A DNA stretch of 31,280 nucleotides from a virus (taxonomy: Duplodnaviria; Heunggongvirae; Uroviricota; Caudoviricetes), in the IMG/VR virus record IMGVR_UViG_3300045988_033906, positions 1 through 31,280 of that record; one strand, 5' to 3'. Below are positions 36 to 26,249 of the stretch, in pieces. Below the pieces are notes generated by a model. That model saw nothing but the letters and a program-made list of their open reading frames with translations. It was not told where the DNA came from and did no database searches. Both the position numbers and the translations under genes were made by a program. Within the stretch, counting starts at the first letter, position 1. The number at the start of each line of letters is the position of its first letter.

Positions 36-209
36 ATGCGAAAACGACACCGATTTAACAGTCGCATGACCCGTATCGTACTGCTCATCAGCTTTATCTT
101 CTTCTTTGGCCGTTTTATCTACTCGTCCGTCGGTGCCTGGCAGCACCATCAGAGCAAAAAAGAAGCTCAGCAATCCACACTCTCCGTCGAATCACCGGTA
201 CAACGTTAG
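36..209 (+). CDS. hypothetical small protein with one hydrophobic segment
   Basis: ORF-track frame 18-209 begins at GTG; first ATG at 36 gives MRKRHRFNSRMTRIVLLISFIFFFGRF... (basic N-terminus then hydrophobic stretch). No homolog recognised, no clear RBS. Confidence 0.25.
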   Translation: MRKRHRFNSRMTRIVLLISFIFFFGRFIYSSVGAWQHHQSKKEAQQSTLSVESPVQR

Positions 210-519
210 CGGTTACCTTCTCCACTTTCACAGAACCTAACGGCACTTCGCTGTCGGATGCTTTTGCTCTTTGGAATTATCAAAGCGGCAGATATTCTTT
301 CATCTTAAATTTTACGTCTTTGTCCTGACTGATGTTTATCCTGTTTGGCTGCGAAATAAATATAAAATTAATATATATGTTGTAATGATATATTTTTATA
401 AATTATTCCCTGCATGAATTTTAATAAATTTAATCTATCCCTTTATACGCAATACATTTACTTTCCTCTTTTGATGATCTTAAATGTCTTATTTTTCGTA
501 ATGTGTATAACAAGGAATA

Positions 520-3610: not shown

Positions 3611-3781
3611 AGTGACCACCGTTTACTGTGCATAAAAACCCCCTTAGTTGGTGAGTTCATCATACACAATAAACCATATATGGAGTAAATTACCTAAGAT
3701 AACTCCTACCAAAATTACCTTTAAGGTGATATGCTCTGTACAATTATTAATATACCGATAAACAAATAGTGAAGAAATATA

Positions 3782-4873
3782 ATGTTTACACCATCAATTA
3801 TTTCTATTGCATTCTCTTTGTCTATAATTATATTTTTTATAGCTTTAACTTATCCTGTTAGGAAATTAGTATATCAAAACGAAAAATTAAACCACTCAAT
3901 TGAAGGGCTCAGGGGTATCGCATGTATACTTGTATTTGTAAATCACTCAGCATGGATGCTGACAAACAATCATGTTGAGTCTGCAAAAATTGATTATACA
4001 AACTTCAATTATTTTGGTAATTTTGGTTCATTTGGGGTTGAATTATTTTTCTGTATAACAGGGTATCTTTTTTCTTCAAAAATAAAAAGTGGTGAGTTTG
4101 ATATAGAATTCTTTGGTAAGAGGATTAAAAGACTGGCGCCAGCTTATTTATTTGTGTCATTAATAACATTTATTCTTTTTATTGTAAAATACAACAATCT
4201 AATAGTTACTTTTGATGATATATCAAGAGTTATACAGCAGATATTTGGGTTTGGTTTTTTTGGTTCTGGAATTAGAGTGCAGGGTAGCACAATAACATCT
4301 CTAAATGCTGTGGTGTGGACGTTACCTTTCGAATGGAAGTTTTACGCAGCTATACCATTTATAGCATATTGCTTTAGAAGAAGAACAATTCTAATACCAT
4401 TATTTATATTTTCATTCTTTGTTATATATTCTCAGTACGCTGAAGATAATACGCTGTGGGTGTACTTTATAACTGGGTTTATCTGTTCTTATATTAAACC
4501 ATGCAAGAATAAAATTCTTTGTTTTGCATGTTCTATATCAGCTCTAGTTCTGATTATATATATTATATTAAGTAACTATTATCAATACAGCGCAATGAGG
4601 GTTATACCTATTAGTGCATTTTTTATTCTTTGCGTTTTTTCCAATCCAAAATGGATAAAAATAAAACCATTATCAATTGCTGGAACTCTTAGTTATAGCA
4701 TATATCTAACACACCAAGCGGCAATGTTTTGCATTGTTAACATAGCAAGCATTTTATTTAATGATTTTGATTTCACAACAGTCCATTTATTAATCTTAGC
4801 AATTATTTCAGCAATTTTAACGATTATCGCATCATTGCTCTTATACTCTAAGATTGAGAGAAGGTTTATCTAA
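3782..4873 (+). CDS. acyltransferase family 3 integral membrane protein (O-antigen acetyltransferase-like, candidate seroconversion gene)
   Basis: 363 aa, about 10 hydrophobic helices; N-terminal AT3 signature with conserved Arg/His (IEGLRGIACILVFVNH); gene is strikingly AT-rich compared with flanking phage genes; opposite strand to the late operon, between tailspike and lysis genes (typical moron slot). Confidence 0.8.
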   Translation: MFTPSIISIAFSLSIIIFFIALTYPVRKLVYQNEKLNHSIEGLRGIACILVFVNHSAWMLTNNHVESAKIDYTNFNYFGNFGSFGVELFFCITGYLFSSKIKSGEFDIEFFGKRIKRLAPAYLFVSLITFILFIVKYNNLIVTFDDISRVIQQIFGFGFFGSGIRVQGSTITSLNAVVWTLPFEWKFYAAIPFIAYCFRRRTILIPLFIFSFFVIYSQYAEDNTLWVYFITGFICSYIKPCKNKILCFACSISALVLIIYIILSNYYQYSAMRVIPISAFFILCVFSNPKWIKIKPLSIAGTLSYSIYLTHQAAMFCIVNIASILFNDFDFTTVHLLILAIISAILTIIASLLLYSKIERRFI

Positions 4874-7121: not shown

Positions 7122-7138
7122 ATTACCTTTCTGGTAAT
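7122..7138. promoter_or_regulatory. perfect inverted repeat ATTACC-N5-GGTAAT (candidate operator), copy A
   Basis: ATTACCTTTCTGGTAAT at 7122-7138; same IR architecture recurs at 23733-23747 and 30377-30393 (and weaker at 30316-30330); about 40 bp upstream of the LexA box. Confidence 0.4.
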
Positions 7139-21448: not shown

Positions 21449-21745
21449 TCACTCCTGTTCACTGGCCTCTTTGGCCATCTTCAAATACTGTTCAGGGCAA
21501 TGCGCCATAACGCGCTGAAACAGTTCCAGAGCCAGATTGCGTTGCCCCTCATTAAATGCCATTGCCATAGCGTCCATCGGCGAGATAGCGGAAAACACAC
21601 GGCCTTTCTCCAGTACCGACCAGACAACCCGACGCCCCTGTTCACAGCTCATGACAAAGCGAATGTCATCAATTTCACGCTGTGCCATGTCACGTTGCTT
21701 ACGGGCGTTTTCTTCTTTCAGTTGATCGTCTTCGTAATCTGTCAT
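21449..21745 (-). CDS. hypothetical small protein between portal and scaffold
   Basis: 98 aa; ATG overlaps portal stop (ATGA); charged helical protein; no function recognised. Confidence 0.5.
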   Translation of the reverse strand: MTDYEDDQLKEENARKQRDMAQREIDDIRFVMSCEQGRRVVWSVLEKGRVFSAISPMDAMAMAFNEGQRNLALELFQRVMAHCPEQYLKMAKEASEQE

Positions 21746-23421
21746 TGTGATTGCCCACCCTGACCACTAACTGCATTCGCCATAGCTGACAAAACACTCG
21801 GATCCGAAGTTTTAGCTTCGCTTAGCGTCTTGGCACCCTGTGCCGCCGCCATCCCCATCGCCATCATTTGTTGCTGCTGTTGCTGCTGTGCCCGTTGCTG
21901 GCGAGCCTGCTCAACCTGTTCCTGCGGAACAATGACGGTTGGAGACACTCCGGACATATCAGCGAATGCATCGATCGCCTGATCAACGTTGAGTTTGTCG
22001 AGAGCTTCTGGTTTCGCTTGCGCAAGTTGACCAATGAAGTTGACCGTGGATGCCAGACTGGACAGGCCGATAGACTTCTGCGCCTGAGCCATGACGGAAA
22101 TGTATTCGACCTTCAGGGGCATACCTTCCATCGCGTCAGGCGGTGGCGGCAGCATGTTTTTACGCACCATCATCGAGAAAGCGCGGTCAATGAGAGGATT
22201 AAGACATTCGTCGTTCAGACGCTCCAGAACCGGCCCCAACATCAGAAGTTTTTCTTCTTTCATTTCGATCACCGCTTCAACAGGCATCGAGCGGGTATTG
22301 ATGTTCTGCAACATCATGAACAGATCGACAAAGTAGGCGCTGTTAATGATTTGACGAGTGTCCTGAATGTCTGCCACCAAATCTGCTGTACTGGGGTTAA
22401 CCAGATAAGCAGGCCTGAAACCATCCTGACCAGTAATCTGATCGATATACGTGATGTCGCCAGGAAGAAGGGAGGCGCGCTGATTCTTGAGGGAAGTCGG
22501 AGCAACCATCGGCGGATTGGTGGCTTTATCAATCAACTGCGACTTGCGCTTCTGGAGAAGCTGCAATGCCTTAACAGGTCCAAGCGCCAGCATACCCGGG
22601 CATGATGATCCATAAACATCTTCGCCGTTAACTTCCCAGCGCGGAGCCATAATTGGAAACTCATCGAATCCGGACTCACGCAACAACTTGTCGTTATCGC
22701 CACCAACCTCGTAATAAACCGATTTGAATGGCTTGTTCTTGCTATCCAGCTTCGATGTATCGCGGTCAATGTTCGGGTAAACCGAATGCATCACTTCAAT
22801 CCACTTCTCGTAGGTGCCGCTTTCCCACATGCTTTTTACGGATTCGCTGACGTTATTTAGTCCGAATTCCTGAACAAGCTGACGAACAGTCATAGATAAC
22901 TTGCGAAAACAGGTGTCCACACTGCCACGAGGTGAGTTAGCCAGGTAGTAACTGCCTATCGGGAATGGCATTGTGCGAATGATGTCCTCGTCATCCTCCA
23001 GCACCGCCATTGCACCAGTGCTGTATGTGCCGAGGCTTCCGTATAACTGCGGCAGCGACTGATAGAGATTCGACTTATTGAACATATCGTTCATACGGTT
23101 CTGCACCGCCTCAAGCCACAACTTAACAGGGCCATAATCCATCATTTCAGGATCTGGCGTAGCCAGGCGAAACCACGGACGCGCGGGGCTTGTGATGCCT
23201 GACATCATGCCGCTGGCGAGAGTGCGCGCCGCCATAGTCCCGGTCGAATCAATAATGCGTGTATTGCGTCGATCGTTACGGTTGACCTCAGAAGTCAGAA
23301 AGCGGGAACCACGCGGGTTGATGTAATCACTCAACTCGCGCCAGTGCGGCTCGAACGACTGACGCTCGCTTTCAAGTTGTGCGAACTGTTTGTTCAATCG
23401 CTCTTTAGTTGTTTCCGCCAT
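21742..23421 (-). CDS. portal (head-tail connector) protein
   Basis: 559 aa; RBS GGAG; follows terminase in the late operon; size and position match podovirus portal proteins; C-terminus Gln/Ala-rich. Confidence 0.85.
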   Translation of the reverse strand: MAETTKERLNKQFAQLESERQSFEPHWRELSDYINPRGSRFLTSEVNRNDRRNTRIIDSTGTMAARTLASGMMSGITSPARPWFRLATPDPEMMDYGPVKLWLEAVQNRMNDMFNKSNLYQSLPQLYGSLGTYSTGAMAVLEDDEDIIRTMPFPIGSYYLANSPRGSVDTCFRKLSMTVRQLVQEFGLNNVSESVKSMWESGTYEKWIEVMHSVYPNIDRDTSKLDSKNKPFKSVYYEVGGDNDKLLRESGFDEFPIMAPRWEVNGEDVYGSSCPGMLALGPVKALQLLQKRKSQLIDKATNPPMVAPTSLKNQRASLLPGDITYIDQITGQDGFRPAYLVNPSTADLVADIQDTRQIINSAYFVDLFMMLQNINTRSMPVEAVIEMKEEKLLMLGPVLERLNDECLNPLIDRAFSMMVRKNMLPPPPDAMEGMPLKVEYISVMAQAQKSIGLSSLASTVNFIGQLAQAKPEALDKLNVDQAIDAFADMSGVSPTVIVPQEQVEQARQQRAQQQQQQQMMAMGMAAAQGAKTLSEAKTSDPSVLSAMANAVSGQGGQSQ

Positions 23422-23435
23422 TTCAATGACTCCGG

Positions 23436-23642
23436 TTACTGACCAAGCAGCGTTTTACCGCTGGTATTAGCGGTTGATGTGTCGCCCTGAGAACCGGTAA
23501 GCAGCGTAGAACTACGACCAGCAGCAGCGCGACGGCGACGAGTTTCTTCGTCGCGGGCATCAACAACGGCGGCATCCTGCTCCTGTGGTGCTGCCTGAAC
23601 TTCTGGTGTTGCAGGCACTGATGGTGAGCTACCCATGCACAT
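23436..23642 (-). CDS. hypothetical small acidic protein upstream of portal
   Basis: 68 aa; its RBS/start context (GGAGTCATTGATATG) is nearly identical to the portal start context (GGAGTCATTGAAATG) 220 nt downstream; low-complexity sequence, so weak. Confidence 0.35.
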   Translation of the reverse strand: MCMGSSPSVPATPEVQAAPQEQDAAVVDARDEETRRRRAAAGRSSTLLTGSQGDTSTANTSGKTLLGQ

Positions 23643-23732
23643 ATCAATGACTCCGTACGCAATTAAATTATTACCAATTTAACCACATATGATTTATTTA
23701 TCGTAGACAGTTGACATTTAACGCACAAATTA

Positions 23733-23747
23733 TTACCTTTCAGGTAA
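23733..23747. promoter_or_regulatory. inverted repeat TTACC-N5-GGTAA (copy B), with TTGACA 17 bp upstream
   Basis: ATTACCTTTCAGGTAAG at 23732-23748 matches copy A (ATTACCTTTCTGGTAAT) at 15 of 17 positions; TTGACA at 23711-23716; lies upstream of the tRNA on the same strand. Confidence 0.35.
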
Positions 23748-24069
23748 GCAAAGGGTTCATTCCGGTTATTAACCTGACTGGCTTGTCGTTAAATTGAACA
23801 GGTGGAGTGAACTTTTATTTTGAGCAGTACGGCGTATGGCACATGCGCCGATAGCGGTCTGGATACGTTTAAGGGGCATCCTCCCTTGCTCGGGCAAACG
23901 AACCAGGTAGCCGGAATGTGCAAGTCGAGCGGTTTTATTCCGCGCACGGGGATTCACCATCCCGGCGATTCGGTGTGACGCCTCGGAAGAGACGAGGGTA
24001 CAACGATGAGAGCATTTATGGAGCCGCGACAAAGTGTGGCGCCTTAACAGGCTAAGTGCTCTCAGCGTT

Positions 24070-24146
24070 GTGGCATTAGCTCAGCTGGACAGAGCAACCG
24101 CCTTCTAAGCGGTTGGTCGCAGGTTCGAATCCTGCATGCCACGCCA
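24070..24146 (+). tRNA. tRNA-Arg (anticodon UCU), phage-encoded
   Basis: Hand-folded cloverleaf: acceptor GTGGCAT/ATGCCAC (7 bp), D-stem GCTC/GAGC, anticodon stem ACCGC/GCGGT with loop CTTCTAA (anticodon TCT), T-stem GCAGG/CCTGC with loop TTCGAAT, discriminator G, encoded CCA. Confidence 0.85.
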
Positions 24147-24189
24147 GAATCACGCCTGAGGACCGTGATGCCAGAAGTTCCAGGTGCTT

Positions 24190-24233
24190 GGCGGTGATGG
24201 TTTCCCTTGAAGGACTATCACCGCCCTTTTTAC
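24190..24233 (+). terminator. rho-independent terminator downstream of tRNA
   Basis: GGCGGTGAT (24190-24198) pairs with ATCACCGCC (24217-24225), followed by CTTTTTAC. Confidence 0.6.
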
Positions 24234-24261
24234 AGCAGGACGCCATTGCGATGACTTCATG

Positions 24262-24277
24262 CTGTAAACCAGTACAG
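24262..24277 (+). promoter_or_regulatory. possible second LexA box (CTGT-N8-ACAG)
   Basis: CTGTAAACCAGTACAG; fits the CTGT-N8-ACAG core but the spacer is less AT-rich than consensus; about 70 bp upstream of the Gp49-like gene. Confidence 0.3.
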
Positions 24278-24309
24278 CCACGGAAGGCATAACTCATTGC
24301 TTCCAGTTC

Positions 24310-24333
24310 GCCCGGTTCGCCGGGCATTTTTTT
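24310..24333 (+). terminator. rho-independent terminator / attenuator abutting the RBS of the next gene
   Basis: GCCCGG TTCG CCGGGC then ATTTTTTTAA; the T-run runs directly into RBS AAGGTGAG of the 24345 gene. Confidence 0.55.
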
Positions 24334-24344
24334 AAGGTGAGATT

Positions 24345-24683
24345 ATGAACGACCAGCAAATCGAAAAAGAAATCGTTGAGAAAGGCAAAACCGCTCCGCG
24401 AGTTACGCCAGACCATATCGAAAGCATTATTCTTGCGGAAACGTACTTCACTGCTGCTGATGGAGCTATTGCAACTGGCGATGACTATCACGACAGTTTG
24501 GCTCTGCTGACATTTTGTGTATTGACTCTACAAAATGGCTTCACCGTCACCGGTGAAAGCGCCTGCGCCAGTCCTGAAAACTTTGATGCAGAAATTGGTC
24601 GGAAGATTGCCCGGCAAAATGCTGTAAACAAAATCTGGATGCTCGAAGGTTACTTGCTGAAGCAGAAGTTAAGCGAGCAATAA
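24345..24683 (+). CDS. phage Gp49/Sf6-gp66-like family protein (function unknown)
   Basis: 112 aa; RBS AAGGTGAG; conserved block LTFCVLTLQNGFTVTGESACASPENFDAEIGRKIARQNAVNKIWMLEGYLL recalled from this prophage protein family; opposite strand to the flanking terminase and portal genes. Confidence 0.55.
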   Translation: MNDQQIEKEIVEKGKTAPRVTPDHIESIILAETYFTAADGAIATGDDYHDSLALLTFCVLTLQNGFTVTGESACASPENFDAEIGRKIARQNAVNKIWMLEGYLLKQKLSEQ

Positions 24684-24687
24684 CACC

Positions 24688-24699
24688 GTGACATGTCAC
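24688..24699. repeat. 12-bp perfect palindrome GTGACATGTCAC, copy 2 of 3
   Basis: Lies 4 nt after the stop codon of the Gp49-like gene and just before a terminator hairpin, the same stop-palindrome-hairpin arrangement as copy 1. Confidence 0.5.
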
Positions 24700-24703
24700 A
24701 AAC

Positions 24704-24733
24704 AGCCAGCCGATGAGCTGGCTTTGTTTTATC
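24704..24733 (+). terminator. rho-independent terminator
   Basis: AGCCAGC (24704-24710) / GCTGGCT (24717-24723), loop CGATGA, then TTGTTTTAT. Confidence 0.55.
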
Positions 24734-24773
24734 CTCACCAGAGGATATCAGCAGCATTATCCCCTCCAGAGGA

Positions 24774-26249
24774 TTAAGCATAGGGATCGTAATCTGTAAT
24801 GGCCTTGCCTTGCTGGTTCTGCTGACCGGGAATTCGCAGACGCTTCGACACCGGGAAAGCAAACGTCAGCAGTAGCGCATCGCCTTTACCCGGCGAACGC
24901 CCAAGCCGCTCCTTGATATCTTCCTTCGGTTCGATAACGATTTTACCGTCCACGCGAACTTTGTACTCTGCCGCCGACAGTTCGTCCGCTGTTTCCTGGT
25001 CATCCAGCATGCCGCCCAGCCTCAGCCATGTCTTGCATGCATTGAACATCTCCCCACGCTTGTTAAGCATCTGCGGGTCAGTGGACGCACCACCGAACGG
25101 AACAAGTTGCCATGTGCGCCCCCAACCGTCACCGATTGACTTCAGCCCGGTACCGTAACCGAAGTCGATGAACACCGCGTCAGCCTGATACTGGTCTTCA
25201 AAGTCAGCGATACGCTTTGCCATAATCAGATCGTCAGTGGTCTTGTTGCCGGTCCACAGCACCTTACTGTGCAGCCCCTGCCGCAGGTATATCACCGCGT
25301 CATCAACACCGGAGTATGCAGGGTCAACGCCGATTATCACCGGAGCATGTGCCACCTGCGCAGCAGTTACCACCCGTTTCATTGCCTCGTCAGTAAGACC
25401 GGTAGGGATAAACTGCAATTCAGATGCATCAGGGAATATGCCGCGCACACGGATTTTAACGAAGTCGCTGTCTTCCCCGTAGTCATCAACCCATTTCTGC
25501 AACTGCTGTTTGTTGGTGCCTTCCACCGTCCGGCTGTCAATCTGCGCAGTTTTCCAGCGGTGTTTATATTTGCGGAAACATTCGCGGAAACGCCCGGTAT
25601 TACGCGTCGGGTTCCCGAACGCCACCCAGATGATTTCGGTGTCTTCGTCCGTCAGCGCACCCTCTGCTACCTCCCACACCAGATCGGCAATGTTGGATGC
25701 TTCGTCGAAAACCACGATGATGCGTTTGCGCTCGTTGTGTAGTCCGGCGAATGCCTCAGTGTTGTGCTCAGACCAGGGGATTGCGTCAGCTCGCCACCGC
25801 TTGTCGTGCCCATGGTCATTGCTGTACATCGCGGTAGCGGTACAGGTAAACCAGTCTTTCGTGATAGCAAGGTTCGACCACTTGATAATTTCCGGCCAGG
25901 TCTTCGTTCGTAGTTGGTTGTCGGTATTGGCGGTCACCACGACCTTACAATCCTCGCAAGTGGACATGCCCCAGTTGATCAGCATTGAGATGAATGCGGA
26001 TTTACCAATACCGTGACCCGAAGCACGTGCCAGCATAAGCGGCTGATAGCGCGTCTCTGGATTCTGCAGGTGATCACGTATCTCTCGGAACGCATCGGCC
26101 TGCCACTGACGTGGGCCGGTAGCATGTGCCAGTTCAGTCCCCTCTTCCCCCCACGGGAACGCATAGAGGGCATAACCAAGCGGATCGTGAGTAAACCCTG
26201 CAATATCCTCGATCAACTGCTCTTCAGGAGATAACGCTGCATCTGTCAC
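24774..26249 (-). CDS. terminase large subunit
   Basis: 491 aa; Walker A-like ARASGHGIGKS, Walker B-like IIVVFDEA, C-terminal nuclease-type region (IIGVDPAYSG...); GTG start overlapping TerS stop (GTGA). Confidence 0.9.
   Translation of the reverse strand: MTDAALSPEEQLIEDIAGFTHDPLGYALYAFPWGEEGTELAHATGPRQWQADAFREIRDHLQNPETRYQPLMLARASGHGIGKSAFISMLINWGMSTCEDCKVVVTANTDNQLRTKTWPEIIKWSNLAITKDWFTCTATAMYSNDHGHDKRWRADAIPWSEHNTEAFAGLHNERKRIIVVFDEASNIADLVWEVAEGALTDEDTEIIWVAFGNPTRNTGRFRECFRKYKHRWKTAQIDSRTVEGTNKQQLQKWVDDYGEDSDFVKIRVRGIFPDASELQFIPTGLTDEAMKRVVTAAQVAHAPVIIGVDPAYSGVDDAVIYLRQGLHSKVLWTGNKTTDDLIMAKRIADFEDQYQADAVFIDFGYGTGLKSIGDGWGRTWQLVPFGGASTDPQMLNKRGEMFNACKTWLRLGGMLDDQETADELSAAEYKVRVDGKIVIEPKEDIKERLGRSPGKGDALLLTFAFPVSKRLRIPGQQNQQGKAITDYDPYA

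Follow-up and report, generated by a model that had tools for sequence, protein, structure and literature searches.

The window analysed here is the whole 31,280-nucleotide (nt) IMG/VR virus record IMGVR_UViG_3300045988_033906, a phiV10/epsilon15-like (Uetakevirus) prophage of Escherichia coli, and the element in question is a predicted structured RNA module on its plus strand at 23825-24233. The late genes around this module lie on the minus strand and encode the small (26246-26920) and large (terL, 24774-26249) terminase subunits, a 68-amino-acid (aa) protein (23436-23642) and the portal protein (21742-23421; Pfam Head-tail_con, E 5e-187). Between terL and the 68-aa gene, every meaningful feature is carried by the plus strand, and the order in Uetakevirus phages is promoter/operator, module, terminator T1, terminator T2, a variable cargo open reading frame (ORF) and terminator T3, all convergent with terL. 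The 1.4 kb surrounding the module shares 94-98% identity with numerous E. coli prophages and with ZX5, phiV10 and the O157 typing phages. A first-pass annotation, made from the letters of the DNA, had described the interval between the terminase and portal genes as a non-coding gap of about 1.1 kb lying antisense to the late operon. The size is confirmed (1.13 kb) and the plus-strand reading is borne out by G·U pairs that are tolerated on that strand only, but the gap also contains the 68-aa gene and, just outside the region first described, a plus-strand Gp49-family ORF (24345-24683) and a third terminator (24704-24723) that had been overlooked.

Comparative analysis predicts that 23825-24071, the roughly 245 nt preceding a transfer RNA (tRNA) gene, is one conserved non-coding RNA domain folded into seven helices and a hairpin-loop pseudoknot. 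The structure, which the pair-counting tool divides into nine helix segments, was derived from an alignment of 81 distinct copies using RNAalifold and a column-pair scan. The same comparisons show that the domain, a slot occupied here by the tRNA, a trailer hairpin and T1 together make up one predicted RNA module. Where the first-pass annotation saw about 250 nt of local hairpins, the structured and non-coding nature of the region holds, but the hairpins are better described as parts of a single pseudoknotted domain with a long closing helix.

All helices are assigned to the plus strand. Helix P1 (23830-23838 with 23842-23850; CGGCGUAUG-GCA-CAUGCGCCG) comprises nine pairs that are 98.6% paired across the alignment, with a compensatory change from G-C to A-U in 16 of the 81 sequences. 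Helix P2 (23855-23861 with 23904-23906 and 23910-23913) is 99.6-100% paired, shows a U-A to C-G compensatory change in 27/81 and contains a variable hairpin region, P3 (23871-23876 with 23882-23887, 95.9% paired). A 19-nt core, GGUAGCCGGAAUGUGCAAG (23906-23924), is invariant in 81/81 aligned copies while the surrounding helices vary; 18 nt of this core served as one scan pattern, and it is nearly always present in copies found with the other search pattern. The core is followed by P4 (23924-23926 with 23964-23966) and P5 (23949-23952 with 23960-23963, loop UUCACCA), which has compensatory changes in three of its four pairs. The P5 loop residues CACC (23955-23958) are predicted to form a pseudoknot with GGUG (23972-23975) that is 99.7% paired, one of its pairs being C-G in 48 sequences and A-U in 33. 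Compensatory changes are also found in P6 (23981-23985 with 23993-23997; CCUCG-GAAGAGA-CGAGG, conserved GGAAGAG loop), where C-G is replaced by G-C in 34 sequences and G-C by A-U in 8. Finally, the closing helix P7 (24000-24017 with 24054-24071) surrounds a variable insert (24018-24053) and comprises 17 pairs, 7 of them with compensatory changes, at 92.3% paired. Its 3' strand reaches tRNA position 1 and extends two bases into the tRNA, leaving a zero-nucleotide junction. A long-range GCA/UGC pairing proposed by RNAalifold (columns 132-134 with 405-407) was dropped in favor of the covarying P7.

Of the individual hairpins pointed out beforehand, CCTCG-GAAGAGA-CGAGG (23981-23997) is backed by compensatory changes and GGGAT-TCACC-ATCCC (core at 23949-23963) by covariation, with its loop also taking part in the pseudoknot. 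The third, CGGAAT...ATTCCG (around 23912/23939), is confined to the window's own sequence type, and its 5' arm falls within the invariant core and P2.

Over all helices, 96.2% of 4312 cells are paired, a figure that drops to 34-44% if the 3' partners are displaced by 1-3 columns. Two-sided changes occur at 19 pairs (277 cells), and the covariation score of 0.218 is reached in 0/500 shuffles (shuffled score, 0.108). Given that the sequences are related, these covariation figures are not probabilities; the compensatory changes nonetheless separate several lineages. Frequent alternation between G-C and G·U, which is workable on the plus strand only, indicates that the RNA is read from that strand. 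Folding energy is only mildly unusual (z = -2.5 for the plus and -2.9 for the minus strand) and does not separate the strands; conservation and covariation are what argue for a real structure. The first-pass annotation had suggested Rfam and covariation as checks: covariation finds a conserved structure, but Rfam has no family for the domain. In the window, only the tRNA reaches an Rfam gathering score, and there is no meaningful match to the domain at E ≤ 10 within 23400-24800. Searches at E ≤ 1 of the module regions of mEp460, of one Klebsiella-type copy and of one P1-like plasmid likewise leave the 5' domain unmatched. An Rfam identity for the domain was thus rejected, as the window and these three other family types returned only tRNAs and unrelated C4/isrK RNAs.

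Upstream of the tRNA, no conserved ORF is found in 23663-24069, where variable columns are distributed 48/48/49 over the codon phases (p = 0.96, 81 distinct homologues). In other family types, the 87-codon minus-strand ORF changes frame or runs into stops, and which of three frames covers the invariant core depends on the type. For each of the six frames, synonymous/non-synonymous counts look neutral. PGAP calls no coding sequence (CDS) over the RNA domain. These tests agree with the first-pass view that there is no convincing ORF here, and they also answer the objection it had raised against itself, a conserved minus-strand protein: the frame is not conserved and substitutions show no codon periodicity. 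A minus-strand protein gene was consequently rejected on the grounds of missing periodicity, stops in many types and neutral counts. The earlier proposal of a degenerate tRNA array fails as well, since neither ARAGORN nor Rfam at E ≤ 10 finds any tRNA-like match in 23663-24069. In tRNA and tmRNA modes ARAGORN reports a single gene, the tRNA-Arg; the array or tmRNA candidate was set aside on negative results from default ARAGORN and permissive Rfam, the output of ARAGORN at lowered thresholds or with introns being mostly noise.

The gene in the slot, a tRNA-Arg with anticodon UCU and encoded CCA (24070-24146, plus strand), had been recognised as canonical in the first pass, and ARAGORN and Rfam agree on it as one gene (RF00005, 71.7 bits against a threshold of 29, E 5e-14). 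Host tRNA-Arg genes match it at 84.5% identity. In the long ORFs of the window, AGA has a frequency of 8.2 and AGG of 5.5 per 1000 codons, against typical E. coli values of about 2 and 1. The suggestion that the tRNA supplements decoding of these rare codons is plausible given this enrichment and remains a reasonable idea for the tRNA cargo, but it leaves the upstream domain unexplained. The argN/argO-type tRNAs of Stx and other lambdoid phages are likewise canonical AGA/AGG readers, and the phage of the window is rich in those codons. However, the argN/argO-type genes are free-standing, whereas the tRNA of the window is an interchangeable insert in a conserved RNA scaffold.

The RNA domain extends well beyond Uetakevirus. 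BLAST finds window positions 23829-24073 to be about 83% identical to a segment in unrelated lambdoid phages, namely mEp460, cdtI and Stx2c phages, Ayreon and 2H10, and the first 163 nt of this segment to be about 80% identical to P1-like plasmids. Two pattern scans of IMG/VR yielded at least 160 usable copies in at least 58 clusters at about 90% identity. Among the exact-core matches in GTDB, 23 of 27 are true members and the other four are chance matches. Of the 23 members, 22 are located in named Enterobacterales genomes and one on a 1.7-kb contig of a Bacillota metagenome-assembled genome, a contig that is probably misbinned. The RNA family is therefore large and confined to Enterobacterales phages. 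The tRNA form alone is present at ≥80% coverage in about 500 of 5426 complete E. coli genomes, lambdoid and P1-type copies coming on top of this count. In P1, phiV10, epsilon15 and RefSeq prophages, the region is either unannotated or covered by doubtful hypothetical CDSs. The element is undescribed in the literature searched by keyword and core sequences and in a viral structured-RNA catalogue (PMC10690425), with an anonymous catalogue entry among candidate RNAs being possible. The family thus appears to be previously undescribed.

Members differ mainly in two places. The P7 insert ranges from 30 to about 350 nt in other members and carries T-arm-like hairpins in some, and the content of the slot, which starts directly after the 3' strand of P7 (...GCGUU|GUGG), is exchanged. 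Among the matches listed, the slot holds tRNA-Arg(UCU) in 36/160 copies and no recognisable tRNA in 124/160. Its most common content is an element of 75-230 nt closed by GUGGUGA...(U/C)CACCAC, which is not a tRNA by Rfam at E ≤ 1. By eye, this element looks tRNA-shaped, with putative D-arm-like and T-arm-like hairpins. Some members have no slot and run directly to the terminator. Other tRNAs are also encountered: an anticodon AAU species (Rfam tRNA, 52.8 bits) in Phytobacter ursingii (loci L176 and L198) and a tRNA(CAU) with a 46-nt insertion in one IMG/VR copy (L097), detected by ARAGORN at the default threshold with introns allowed. Six Klebsiella-type Uetakevirus copies (L025, L029, L080, L082, L146 and L148) carry a tRNA-Arg(UCU) with the acceptor stem GUGGCAU/AUGCUGC, which contains U2·G71 and G3·U70 wobble pairs. 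As G3:U70 is an identity element of alanyl-tRNA synthetase, this tRNA might be mis- or dual-charged.

Downstream of the slot, the trailer hairpin AUCACG-CCUGAGGAC-CGUGAU (24149-24169, plus strand) is found in most family types regardless of slot content. It is followed by T1 (24190-24233, plus strand), a 14-bp hairpin (24190-24225) with the tract CTTTTTAC. The base of T1, GGCGG/CCGCC-U5, is conserved across family types and its upper stem appears, by eye, to covary. A second terminator, T2, consists of GCCCGG-TTCG-CCGGGC (24310-24325) followed by AT7 (24310-24333, plus strand) and is also present, as an annotated feature, in epsilon15. The two strong terminators noticed in the first pass correspond to T1 and T2, both of which were returned by a terminator scan and combine a G+C-rich hairpin with a U-tract; their classification as intrinsic terminators is a prediction from sequence. 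T2 ends 12 nt ahead of the Gp49/Sf6 gp66-family ORF (plus strand; Pfam PF13876 Phage_gp49_66, E 1.8e-34; RefSeq annotation of close relatives), and no promoter-like site is found between T1 and this ORF in the window. Expression of the Gp49-family ORF would have to rely on terminator read-through. T3, on the plus strand and found by the same scan, follows the ORF. In TL-2011b, a different ORF takes its place. The minus-strand CDS phiV10p04 and its PGAP equivalents (24076-24327) run antisense to the tRNA and T1 and are probably spurious.

Upstream of the module, the TTGACA/inverted-repeat region that the first-pass annotation had called promoter-like is recovered at 23704-23747. It comprises a sigma-70-like promoter candidate, TAGACA-18-AATTAT (23704-23733, plus strand; 9/12 matches in a consensus scan), overlapped by TTGACA at 23711-23716, and, directly after it, the operator-like perfect palindrome TTACCTTTCAGGTAA (23733-23747), with a companion motif AACCACATATG at about 23683-23693. 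The position of the promoter candidate is kept in epsilon15, where the counterpart of the palindrome site carries a repressor-binding-site annotation. Eight copies of TTACCTTTCAGGTAA occur in the window at ≤2 mismatches versus 0.66 expected, a number reached in 0/100 shuffles. The palindrome TTACCTNNNAGGTAA recurs in intergenic positions at 3715-3729, 7123-7137, 23733-23747, 30316-30330 and 30378-30392, with the AACCACATATG motif about 35-50 nt from these copies. The copy at 3715 precedes an Acyl_transf_3 ORF (3782-4873) at the position of the O-antigen acetyltransferase of phiV10. Judged by these motifs, the palindrome looks like the phage's own operator/promoter module for plus-strand accessory units. 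Between this site and P1 lies a degenerate remnant of an upstream unit, GGTGGAGTGAAC...GAGCAGT (23782-23829, plus strand), recognised by BLAST alignment to epsilon15 and visual comparison; epsilon15 and Klebsiella-type copies have GGAGTGCGCTTTCAGGTGTGTAGCAGT there.

In every context examined in detail, the module heads a co-oriented transcription unit. Lambdoid prophages are the most common home of the family, and in most lambdoid members a plus-strand ORF of 218-240 aa, the size of cI, ends about 100-150 nt upstream. This ORF was identified as a repressor in mEp460 and XSLGL-2 only, and the upstream pattern is the usable part of the survey, as the orientation of downstream ORFs is confounded by spurious antisense ORFs over the RNA. 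In mEp460, the cI stop codon is followed by a terminator, a copy of an operator from the cI-cro region and then the module. This position predicts that the lambdoid module opens the pL transcript, at the place taken by nutL-N in lambda and by putL in HK022. The first downstream plus-strand ORFs sampled in lambdoid members include one RdgC and one Tad2-like protein, the others being without a Pfam match, and none is N-like. In annotated lambdoid loci, yfdPQR-type genes follow the module, and in XSLGL-2 int is found at the far end on the same strand. The Tad2-like domain (Thoeris anti-defence 2, E 1e-9) belongs to the first ORF of an IMG/VR copy (L042), about 360 nt after the module core, and RdgC is the first ORF after the module on another contig (L115); on this evidence, the early-left cargo behind the module includes anti-defence genes. 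Two further observations concern mEp460. Its gp37 (L004, 2443-2811, minus strand), annotated over the RNA domain, is probably a spurious hypothetical CDS. At 206-394 (minus strand) of the same locus, a C4 antisense RNA (83.6 bits) and an isrK-type RNA (67 bits) lie beside an antirepressor gene, forming a P1/P22 immI-like region separate from the pL-leader module.

The remaining contexts are reduced versions of the module. In phage P1 (NC_005856, 71009-71294), the 286-nt unannotated spacer between trnI and ban contains P1-P6 and scores 74.6 bits with R1, a covariance model of the P1-P2 part. The P1 phage copy has no P7, slot or terminator and continues into the ribosome-binding site of ban; the trnI-ban spacer of phage P7 likewise holds helices P1-P6. 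What epsilon15 (L006, 2290-2400) retains is limited to the upstream motif, hairpin P1 and the beginning of P2, fused to the 3' half of T1 at an 11-nt repeat, CCCTTGATGCT. The rest of the domain and the slot have been cleanly deleted, which marks epsilon15 as a deletion derivative. Judging from its place ahead of a transcription unit in all contexts examined and from its tRNA or tRNA-shaped insert, the module probably controls transcription of that unit.

The closest known counterparts are the put RNAs. In HK639, an annotated putL-like RNA lies after pL, and HK022 putL was located by similarity to it, with numbering checked against PMC9378689. The base of helix P1 together with the preceding A23829 (ACGGCG...CAUGCG(U/C)CG) is identical to the base of stem I in HK022 and HK639 putL; the 15-nt motif corresponds to put stem I base C10-G34, including the same G·U pair. 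In 1.9 Mb of DNA examined, the motif ACGGCG-N7-13-CATGCGYCG was found only in family members, HK022 putL and the HK639 putL-like RNA. Weaker similarity to put extends into AUAG(G)CGG and CGG(C/A)AAU. Position is shared as well: in HK022/HK639 and in lambdoid members alike, the RNA lies just after a repressor-controlled early promoter and ahead of terminators and early-left genes, and neither group has an N-like gene at the N position. mEp460 and XSLGL-2 place the module where put would be expected, and the arrangement in the window is analogous, with promoter/operator, module, T1, T2 and ORF in succession.

We therefore tentatively favor, by analogy, a put-like cis-acting read-through element that carries a tRNA as cargo. 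The idea derives from the fact that a structured RNA heads a co-oriented unit, adjoins untranslated tRNA-type sequence and, the P1 phage copy excepted, is followed by a strong terminator that transcription of the later genes has to overcome. Going beyond the structure, the family and its contexts, we infer polymerase modification, read-through and processing as follows. The domain would fold on the nascent transcript and act in cis on the transcribing RNA polymerase via the invariant core and the base of helix P1, as put does in HK022 and HK639. Transcription could then continue through the untranslated tRNA segment and beyond T1 and T2 to reach the genes that follow, while RNase P and 3' processing may excise the tRNA cargo from a highly transcribed leader, adding to AGA/AGG decoding capacity.

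Several observations speak against this put-like proposal. Put RNAs are about 70 nt long, with two stems and a short triplex (PMC9378689), whereas the domain is about 245 nt long, with seven helices, a pseudoknot, its own core, a tRNA slot and a terminator. Model R1 does not find HK022 or HK639 putL at E ≤ 10, G35, which is essential in HK022 put, corresponds to U, A or C in the family, and the shared motif is absent from the part of HK022 where putR should lie. Owing to the model R1 result, the small two-stem architecture of put and the lack of conservation at G35, the element was not filed as a put RNA. In the Uetakevirus of the window, just one small ORF follows, and a polymerase reading through processively would continue beyond T3 into terL in the antisense direction. 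Although most of the domain is gone from epsilon15, T2 and an intact Gp49-family gene are still there. Further, the conserved T1, the zero-nucleotide junction between P7 and tRNA and the closure of the slot by GUGG...CCAC (or CUGC) would better fit an RNA with processed ends.

The last of these points leads to the strongest alternative, which we consider a serious contender if on balance unlikely: a stable trans-acting RNA, encoded by an independent gene that ends at T1. RNase P would cut in front of the slot element and so create the 3' end of the ~245-nt domain precisely where the long P7 helix ends bluntly, and the released RNA would bind a conserved host factor through its core. Here, the linker-free meeting of the P7 3' strand and the tRNA 5' end would be explained by processing, and all slot elements start with GUGG and close with CCAC (CUGC plus wobble in the Klebsiella-type tRNA-Arg), while slotless members go directly to the terminator. 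T1 and the trailer hairpin are conserved module parts in all contexts, and the promoter in front of the module differs, being pL in lambdoids and a moron promoter with an operator in the window. There are precedents for such an arrangement, as a tRNA or tRNA-shaped element is found directly 3' of a structured RNA in MALAT1/mascRNA, the P1/P7 C4 RNA and the P4 CI RNA. In these, RNase P cleavage sets the RNA end, and the phage examples are leader-encoded. However, the family has no sequence or Rfam similarity to MALAT1, C4 or CI, its cargo in the window is a fully canonical tRNA and the C4 RNA of mEp460 is at another locus. The T4 species 1 and 2 RNAs, GOLLD and ROOL are likewise structured non-coding RNAs co-located or co-transcribed with phage tRNA genes, but they differ in host and size and show no sequence or model match, with GOLLD and ROOL both being represented in Rfam. 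A stable RNA also leaves it unexplained how the lambdoid early-left operon, int included, is transcribed past a strong terminator when there is no N-like gene at the N position, and the P1 phage copy lacks P7, slot and T1 and runs into ban. Non-tRNA slot inserts score no tRNA in Rfam at E ≤ 1, and RNase P generally acts poorly on substrates whose 5' leader is fully paired. The stable-RNA and put-like readings could both be true.

A protein-dependent leader, nut-like or riboswitch-like, in which a phage or host protein, or a ligand, chooses between termination at T1/T2 and read-through and the RNA does not itself modify the polymerase, is improbable. It would draw on the same positional evidence as the put-like element, and the complex pseudoknotted fold with an invariant single-stranded core resembles aptamer-like domains, but the Uetakevirus, lambdoid and P1 contexts share no protein gene that regularly accompanies the module. 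The variable slot, which separates the domain from T1 by 100-300 nt, additionally makes direct alternative pairing between the two unlikely.

Somewhat less probable still is an ordinary tRNA precursor leader that would only serve expression, folding, stability or processing of the tRNA, which in turn would do nothing but decode AGA/AGG for the phage. The domain does adjoin a tRNA in the window and in P1, tRNAs recur in the slot, and the AGA/AGG enrichment in window ORFs would suit such a role. Nevertheless, about three quarters of the copies among the matches listed have no recognisable slot tRNA, the tRNA of P1 is upstream and not downstream of the domain, and known tRNA leaders need far less than 245 nt of pseudoknotted RNA with 19 invariant core nucleotides. 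Of the identities first offered for this region, phage small RNA and tRNA precursor leader are both still live. A degenerate tRNA array or a minus-strand protein gene such as phiV10p04 or mEp460 gp37 is very improbable, as the ~80-codon minus-strand frames open in many copies, the hypothetical CDSs annotated in some records and the T-arm-like hairpins in the insert of some members are outweighed by the negative tRNA searches, the even codon phases and the neutral substitution counts described above.

There is a substantial chance that the family constitutes a new class of large, pseudoknotted, tRNA-carrying phage RNA of the leader/antiterminator type. More specific proposals, namely that this class is a much larger third RNA antiterminator, distantly derived from putL, or a modular scaffold for tRNA and tRNA-like cargos, and that it replaces N/nut in many lambdoids, are advanced with slightly more reserve than the put-like reading itself. 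If the structure-level result stands, an unannotated structured RNA is present in hundreds of E. coli genomes and in textbook phages, its carriers including such classic examples as P1, phiV10 and the Stx2c and cdtI phages. An entry in RNA-family databases would then be due and several hypothetical-protein calls over the domain should be removed. The slot architecture suggests a natural platform for tRNA exchange, exemplified by the G3:U70 variant and the AAU anticodon, and a swappable tRNA slot is relevant to codon adaptation in phages, to tRNA-targeting defence and the counter-defence against it, and to RNA engineering. If the put-like mechanism is true, it would explain how early-left genes are transcribed in many lambdoids that have no N-like gene at the N position and would mean that control of RNA polymerase by RNA alone reaches beyond the two small put types.

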